Below, in pieces: positions 40,633-41,294 of a stretch of 64,000 nucleotides of DNA (its first letter is position 1; every line of letters begins with the position of its first letter). Below the pieces are notes generated by a model that was not told where the DNA came from, made no database searches, and saw only the letters and a program-made list of their open reading frames with translations. This DNA comes from Escherichia phage JS98. Made by a program: the position numbers and the translations under genes. The DNA is taken from sequence record NC_010105.1; one strand, written 5' to 3'.

Positions 40633-40842
40633 TTATTTTAACCATGAAGAATTTTCAGAGACCCAGCTATCTATATCTGATTGAGGGCCGAAGAAGTAGG
40701 CAACCCCATTAGATAACTCTCCCGAAAGCCAATTTATGCCTTTCAGGCTTTCTTTAAATTCTTCAGGAGTACAAGAAACCTCTATTGCCACCGAAGAGGC
40801 TGACTCCATTGCTTCTGTTAAAAATTCTTTGTATGATTTCAC
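40633..40842 (-). CDS. internal-protein-like small protein (69 aa)
   Basis: [11 protein letters not shown] leader variant. Confidence 0.45.
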
Positions 40843-41294
40843 TTTAAATCCTCGGCCCAGTCGAGCTTCAAGGGTTCTTTATATTCTCTATCTAAAACGA
40901 CAGGAATCTGGACATCTCCACTAAAGGTAAGAGGTCCTACATTATAAGACAATGTGATATGAGGGGTGTAATCATCAAAATCGTGCGTAGCACCTAAGGT
41001 ACGAGCATACTGATGGCGGCATTTAAGATACTCTGAATTGAGAACCAAGACCAAGACTGGAGAATCACCATGTTTCCACACTTCAAGATGTCCTGACGAA
41101 GCAACTTCAAAACTTCCGGATGCAACGGTGTATGGAACGTTGACTCTTGAATAGCAGATTGTAGAATGGAATTTTTCACGAGGAACTGGATTAGGAACCT
41201 TTAAAGTGCGCTGAAGATTTTCCAGCGCATCTAAAGTCAATTCAGAGAATTTTGCAGCAACGTATAGACCTTGAGCAAAATCTTCCGTTTTCAT
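40839..41294 (-). CDS. 57B: 2H-phosphoesterase, T4 57B/Acb1-type (anti-CBASS cyclic-nucleotide phosphodiesterase)
   Basis: 151 aa with two H-x-T/S motifs (HSTICY and HITLSY) and position upstream of 57A; Acb1 function from established knowledge of T4 57B. Confidence 0.75.

Follow-up and report, generated by a model that had tools for sequence, protein, structure and literature searches.

The gene that follows 57A in this T-even phage encodes a small protein with two short H-x-T/S motifs, and the question it raises is whether these motifs mark an enzyme that destroys the cyclic nucleotide signals of bacterial immunity or one that acts on the ends of RNA. The window, a stretch of 64,000 nucleotides from Escherichia phage JS98 (NC_010105.1), contains the predicted 151-residue reading frame at the expected position, on the minus strand, which the original prediction had not given. 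The two motifs on which that prediction was based, HSTICY (residues 43-48) and HITLSY (residues 112-117), are both in the translation and their codons were checked on the raw sequence. As the motif is short and the protein has six histidines among its 151 residues, two such motifs on their own are weak evidence. The matches over the whole protein, judged by their sequence scores, are far beyond chance. The features discussed are collected in Table 1.

Table 1. Positions in the window of acb1, its functional elements, its neighbours and related features
Feature	Position	Strand	Basis or remark
acb1 (gene 57B), coding sequence, ATG start, 151 aa + stop	40839..41294	minus	ORF list; Pfam PF23474; identity to T4 57B
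First catalytic motif, H43-S44-T45 (T4 H44/T46)	41160..41168	minus	CAT TCT ACA in raw sequence
Second catalytic motif, H112-I113-T114 (T4 H113/T115)	40953..40961	minus	CAT ATC ACA in raw sequence
C-terminal lid, residues 144-151 (LDWAEDLK), including W146 (T4 W147)	40842..40865	minus	Alignment with T4
Gene 57A (tail-fibre chaperone)	41294..41524	minus	Pfam PF17594 GP57, E=1e-28
Gene 1 (dNMP kinase), upstream in the same packed run	41517..42278	minus	Pfam PF21448, E=3e-90; T4 synteny
Candidate late promoter, TATAAATA (T4 late-promoter consensus)	44254..44261	minus	Just upstream of gene 4
69-aa ORF, capsid-targeting-like N-terminus, GTG start	40633..40842	minus	PHROG 23867, E=2e-42 (unknown function)
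97-aa ORF in the T4 ipI slot, N-terminus MKTYQEFIKES	40260..40553	minus	ORF list; BLASTP; N-terminal motif
Early-promoter-like cassettes, near-identical	40577..40621, 40211..40257; also 30964..30987, 36627..36650	minus	
Four further MKTY.EF[IL].E ORFs	26310..26609, 27125..27523, 27564..28160, 36731..37348	minus	N-terminal motif
Three tRNA genes (Arg-TCT, Asn-GTT, Met-CAT)	38206..38438	minus	
Acb2 sponge homologue (T4 Vs.4), 92 aa	24822..25100	minus	66% identical to T4 Vs.4; Pfam PF24729 Acb2_Tad1_hairpin, E=5e-16
T4 Tk.4 homologue	22931..23395	minus	56% identical

The protein matches the Pfam family of anti-CBASS protein Acb1 (PF23474) over the entire profile, positions 1-144 of 144, at 197.9 bits, the family cut-off being 27 bits (E=8.4e-59). 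It also matches PHROG 755 (E=2e-66) and the crystallised Acb1 of Erwinia phage FBB1 (PDB 7T26/7T27, E=1.6e-58). No NCBIfam model matched it, the Acb2 homologue or the two small open reading frames that follow the gene. The family is a large one. A tblastn search found homologues in 1469 phage records, 1459 of them at 80% query coverage or more, and across an alignment of 27 members, with identities down to 27%, the residues H43, T45, H112 and T114 are invariant. A UniRef cluster 99% identical to the protein already carries the name 'Anti-CBASS protein Acb1', and phage MX01 encodes an identical protein, which is thus already in GenBank.

The closest characterised relative is T4 gp57B/Acb1 (NP_049750.1), to which it is 85% identical from end to end. 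The window protein lacks one N-terminal residue, so its residue numbers are those of T4 minus one. Work on T4 Acb1 defined a catalytic HxT/HxT tetrad of H44, T46, H113 and T115, base stacking by Y12, W74, F107 and W147, and recognition of the adenine N6 by E141 (Hobbs et al. 2022, PMC9117128). All nine residues are identical in the window protein, as H43, T45, H112, T114, Y11, W73, F106, W146 and E140. T4 Acb1 also has a C-terminal lid, residues 145-152, that closes over the ligand (PMC9117128) and is required for activity (bioRxiv 10.1101/2025.08.21.671373); the lid reads LDWADDLK in T4 and LDWAEDLK in the window, a single E/D change. The 22 substitutions between the two proteins lie outside the known functional residues, mainly at residues 2-8, 56-58 and 75-80. 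The alignment leaves both catalytic histidine motifs intact and agrees with the Pfam match, the PDB match and the structural model in making this an Acb1-type 2H phosphoesterase and an orthologue of T4 57B, as had been predicted. The gene is very probably the Dhakavirus orthologue of 57B/acb1 and its product most likely a metal-independent 2H phosphodiesterase directed against CBASS signals.

We built an AlphaFold2 model on the 27-member alignment (mean pLDDT 89.2). Lid residues 148-151 were modelled at a pLDDT below 50, as expected for a flexible segment. The best PDB match found by Foldseek was 7T26, with a target-normalised TM score of 0.95 and an rmsd of 0.9 A over 137 columns at 66% identity, so the model predicts the compact 2H phosphoesterase fold of that structure. 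Every structural match was a 2H enzyme. FBB1 Acb1 is 63-66% identical to the window protein and alike in fold and active site; it differs in having F at the position of W73 (T4 W74) and HTT rather than HST as its first motif. The second-ranked group was another phage 2H phosphodiesterase, PDE-9 of Burkholderia phage BCSR5 (9Q2G/9Q2Y), which belongs to the same structural group and cleaves 3'3'-cGAMP. At only 15-18% identity and a TM score of about 0.6-0.7 it is much more distant, and it has an N-terminal lid and avoids 2'3'-c-di-AMP, whereas the lid of the T4 type is C-terminal. Unlike the BCSR5 enzyme, the protein studied here plainly belongs to the T4 type.

The same search bears on the idea that the protein is a LigT-like RNA 2',3'-cyclic phosphodiesterase or a 2'-5' RNA ligase that works on the ends of RNA molecules, in tRNA repair for instance. 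LigT-type enzymes occupy Foldseek ranks 6-23, E. coli LigT and other cellular 2H phosphoesterases having the 2H fold and two HxT/S motifs in common with the window protein. The label 'RNA ligase' stands in the description of PHROG 755 and in RefSeq records of 57B, and tRNA genes lie 2.4 kb from acb1. The resemblance is at the level of the superfamily. LigT structures fit the model with a TM score of only about 0.5 and an rmsd of 6-8 A, where Acb1 gives 0.95 and 0.9 A. They are only 12-15% identical, exceed the window protein in size, and have neither the lid nor the pocket residues of Acb1. In the window protein, every pocket residue that is specific to the binding of cyclic oligonucleotides is conserved. 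The Pfam family 2_5_RNA_ligase2 (PF13563) gave a partial match of 13.8 bits, below its cut-off of 27 (E=0.062). In T4, 57B is the cGAMP-cleaving activity of infected cells (Hobbs et al. 2022), contrary to a role at RNA ends. We therefore rejected the 'RNA ligase' identity as an older, superfamily-level label, and consider a function on RNA ends very unlikely.

What an Acb1 of this type would do is known from other phages. Acb1 cleaves on the 3' side of adenosine, in two steps and without metal, with a cyclic phosphate intermediate (PMC9117128). Adenosine-containing cyclic di- and trinucleotides such as 3'3'-cGAMP and cAAA are cleaved, while cA4, 3'2'-cGAMP and cGG are not, and all nine of the further homologues tested were active (Hobbs et al. 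2022). A broad activity that includes 2'3'-c-di-AMP has been described for the T4 enzyme (bioRxiv 10.1101/2025.08.21.671373). Cleavage prevents activation of the CBASS effectors, and T4 lacking acb1 has a defect of more than 300-fold on CBASS hosts (Hobbs et al. 2022). For the window protein we infer substrates, chemistry, timing and anti-CBASS phenotype from these experiments with T4 and FBB1. At 85% identity and with all functional residues conserved, a T4-like activity is the best-supported expectation.

By this analogy, the gene product would be a small 2H phosphodiesterase that needs no metal and is made midway to late in infection. It would capture CBASS cyclic di- and trinucleotides with at least one adenosine (3'3'-cGAMP, cUA, cAAA and similar) and hold them in a U-shaped pocket beneath the C-terminal lid, their bases stacked on Y11, W73, F106 and W146 and the adenine N6 read by E140. 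The tetrad H43/T45/H112/T114 would then cut the 3'-5' bond on the 3' side of adenosine, by way of a 2',3'-cyclic phosphate, and linear products would result. Once the signal was removed, the CBASS effectors would not be switched on and abortive infection would be averted.

It had been proposed that the phage degrades Pycsar signals as well, and this overreaches. The phage enzyme known to degrade a cyclic nucleotide signal of that kind, Apyc1, likewise removes an immune signal, but it has an unrelated MBL fold with a zinc-binding HxHxDH motif and acts on cyclic mononucleotides. Acb1 and Apyc1 are each specific for their own system, and it is Apyc1 that cleaves cCMP and cUMP, the signals of Pycsar (Hobbs et al. 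2022, PMC9117128). There is no HxHxDH motif in the 151 residues of the window protein and no MBL family in its Pfam scan, so the Pycsar reading fails.

A narrower question is whether a genuine Acb1 fold might here have its main value outside classical CBASS, against the cA3 of type III CRISPR or against further cyclic dinucleotides with adenosine, such as 2'3'-c-di-AMP, or might have a substrate range shifted from that of T4. The 22 substitutions leave room for a shift, and cAAA and 2'3'-c-di-AMP are both cut by the T4 enzyme; Hobbs et al. suggest from its cleavage of cAAA that type III CRISPR might be evaded. The ligand-contact residues and the lid are all conserved, no residue of the pocket differing from T4, and a homologue of Acb2 is also present in this phage, a sign that it faces CBASS much as T4 does. 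Type III CRISPR systems are uncommon in E. coli. We regard a main role outside CBASS, or a shifted range, as quite improbable.

The pattern of substitution shows that the gene is maintained. Compared with T4 57B, pN is 0.137 and pS 0.745, and compared with acb1 of Dhakavirus VR5, pN is 0.009 and pS 0.252; substitutions are mostly synonymous and acb1 is under strong purifying selection. This matters because acb1 overlaps both neighbouring genes and because T4 can dispense with it on hosts without CBASS (Hobbs et al. 2022), so that a decaying or inactive remnant might be kept merely by translational coupling to its neighbours. The reading frame runs uninterrupted to full length, no residue of the catalytic tetrad varies, and the synonymous excess is accompanied by homologues of at least 80% coverage in well over a thousand phage records. 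That acb1 is such a remnant is scarcely credible.

The genomic setting is that of 57B in T4. Escherichia phages JS10 and MN04 match the 5 kb around acb1 at 97.7-98.1% identity, and a search with the first 25 kb of the window points to these relatives too; the window is thus from a Dhakavirus (Straboviridae, Tevenvirinae), a T-even phage of the JS10/JS98 kind. Its gene order is trna.4, two small ORFs, acb1, 57A, 1, 3, 2, 4, and that of the T4 record is trna.2, trna.3, trna.4, ipI, 57B, 57A, 1, 3, 2, 4, 53, 5. Members of the trna.2, trna.3 and trna.4 families were found downstream of acb1 by Pfam and PHROG. In both phages the gene thus lies between 57A and the internal-protein slot, which bears out its predicted placement at the T4 57B position, and in the record of phage JS10 the gene is labelled 57B. 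The genes are packed head to tail: gene 1 overlaps 57A by 8 bases, and the stop of 57A overlaps the start of acb1 by one base (TAATG). The two phages differ downstream of acb1, where the window has a 69-aa ORF with a GTGA overlap and T4 has ipI after a 73-bp gap. They differ also in their tRNA genes, of which there are three in the window; the equivalent place in T4 holds eight tRNAs, segB and two small RNAs.

We found no convincing promoter directly upstream of acb1, and no early-type or MotA-type motif on the minus strand from 41295 to 44250. On the correct strand upstream of the gene, the sole promoter-like element is TATAAATA before gene 4, which is a candidate start for a 4-2-3-1-57A-acb1 transcript and would fit late expression, weakly. 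As this motif is not enriched in the window (7 found, 7.4 expected), the case for a late promoter is one of position. A scan for sigma-70 promoters and terminators over 39900..44400 returned 17 promoter-like sites where 13.8 +/- 4 were expected, and was uninformative for acb1. Over the whole window, the early-promoter pattern GTTTAC-N15-19-TANNNT has 20 occurrences where 4.7 are expected, 18 of these on the minus strand, and the MotA-box-like pattern has 18 where 5.7 are expected, an excess that fits leftward early and middle transcription of a T4-like region. In T4, 57B is reported as predominantly middle/late, and Acb1 activity appears at about 15 min (Hobbs et al. 2022). Similar timing seems probable here, judging from the T4 data and from the one TATAAATA match by its position.

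The other side of acb1 is more variable. The original prediction set the gene beside the ipI locus, in a neighbourhood rich in injected internal proteins. The second point holds at the level of the motif: six minus-strand ORFs begin MK[ST]Y.EF[IL].E, two of them immediately downstream of acb1. Among the four others, the 198-aa product is an orthologue of IPIII, 86% identical to the T4 protein, and the remaining three have 99, 132 and 205 residues. Both ORFs in the slot beside acb1 fit the pattern MKT[YF].EF...E of a predicted capsid-targeting N-terminus, of the type cut by the prohead protease, and their N-termini are close to those of the T4 internal proteins (MKTFKEF in IPI, MKTYQEFIAE in IPII/IPIII).

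The first point is right for position and wrong for orthology, as roughly 10-20 N-terminal residues are all that these ORFs have in common with T4 IPI. We looked for homology to the body of IPI* in both, and BLASTP aligned residues 1-22 only (E=6e-4); PHROG 'internal head protein' gave one match, at E=0.004 and in the N-terminal part only. The 97-aa ORF was considered as an ipI orthologue on the basis of an apparent identity of 32% in a MAFFT alignment, but was rejected since BLASTP supports only its first 22 residues. With no detectable similarity to IPI beyond residue 22, the two ORFs are better described as positional replacements than as ipI orthologues, and the anti-GmrSD protein IPI is not demonstrated in the window.

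The two differ in their distribution. The GTG start of the 69-aa ORF overlaps the acb1 stop, which suggests translational coupling to acb1, and the ORF recurs in 27 phage records, those of Dhakavirus, Citrobacter and Erwinia phages, though unannotated in JS10 and MN04. The 97-aa ORF is a rare allele, found at 100% identity only in JS10 and MN04 and unannotated in JS10, with distant copies (32-38% identity) in Edwardsiella phages PEi20/PEi26 and Yersinia phage MHG19. In the related phage VR5 this slot is filled by ip8 and ip9, two other 'putative internal head proteins'.

The early-promoter-like cassettes have the form GTTTACA-N-TGATACTATAG(C/A)CCTATCAAAACAA, and the 97-aa ORF is flanked on each side by an exact copy of the 24-base core; in this setting the ORF looks like a swappable gene cassette. 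The cassettes call to mind the 'promoter-early stem-loop' shuffling elements known from T4-type phages. One might speculate that there is a small, plastic island of anti-defence genes here, with acb1 as its upstream and better conserved member; the 69-aa and 97-aa ORFs would encode injected proteins that act against host defences on entry, and the cassette repeats would serve as recombination sites at which such genes are swapped between phages. The injected role is modelled on T4 IPI, which disarms GmrSD, and we put this forward as a doubtful proposal.

The window also encodes a homologue of the Acb2 sponge, T4 Vs.4, in an early region that includes a homologue of Tk.4, annotated in the T4 record as a phosphatase with an 'A1pp phosphatase motif'. 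This phage and T4 are thus alike in having both an anti-CBASS nuclease and an Acb2 sponge homologue.

There is nothing unusual about the acb1 gene of this phage: its family is characterised and the protein already named, the phage genus is known and the position canonical, and the analysis confirms known biology. Its value lies in correct annotation and little beyond: many database records still say 'RNA ligase' or 'hypothetical protein', and the evidence supports renaming them to Acb1. Dhakaviruses of the JS10/JS98 kind are used in phage-therapy studies. The loose ends adjoin the gene: the internal-protein slot next to it is variable, in part unannotated, and has repeated promoter cassettes. 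As the phage has both Acb1 and an Acb2 homologue, it should resist many CBASS-bearing E. coli and, by analogy with T4, may be subject to detection by decoy systems such as Panoptes.
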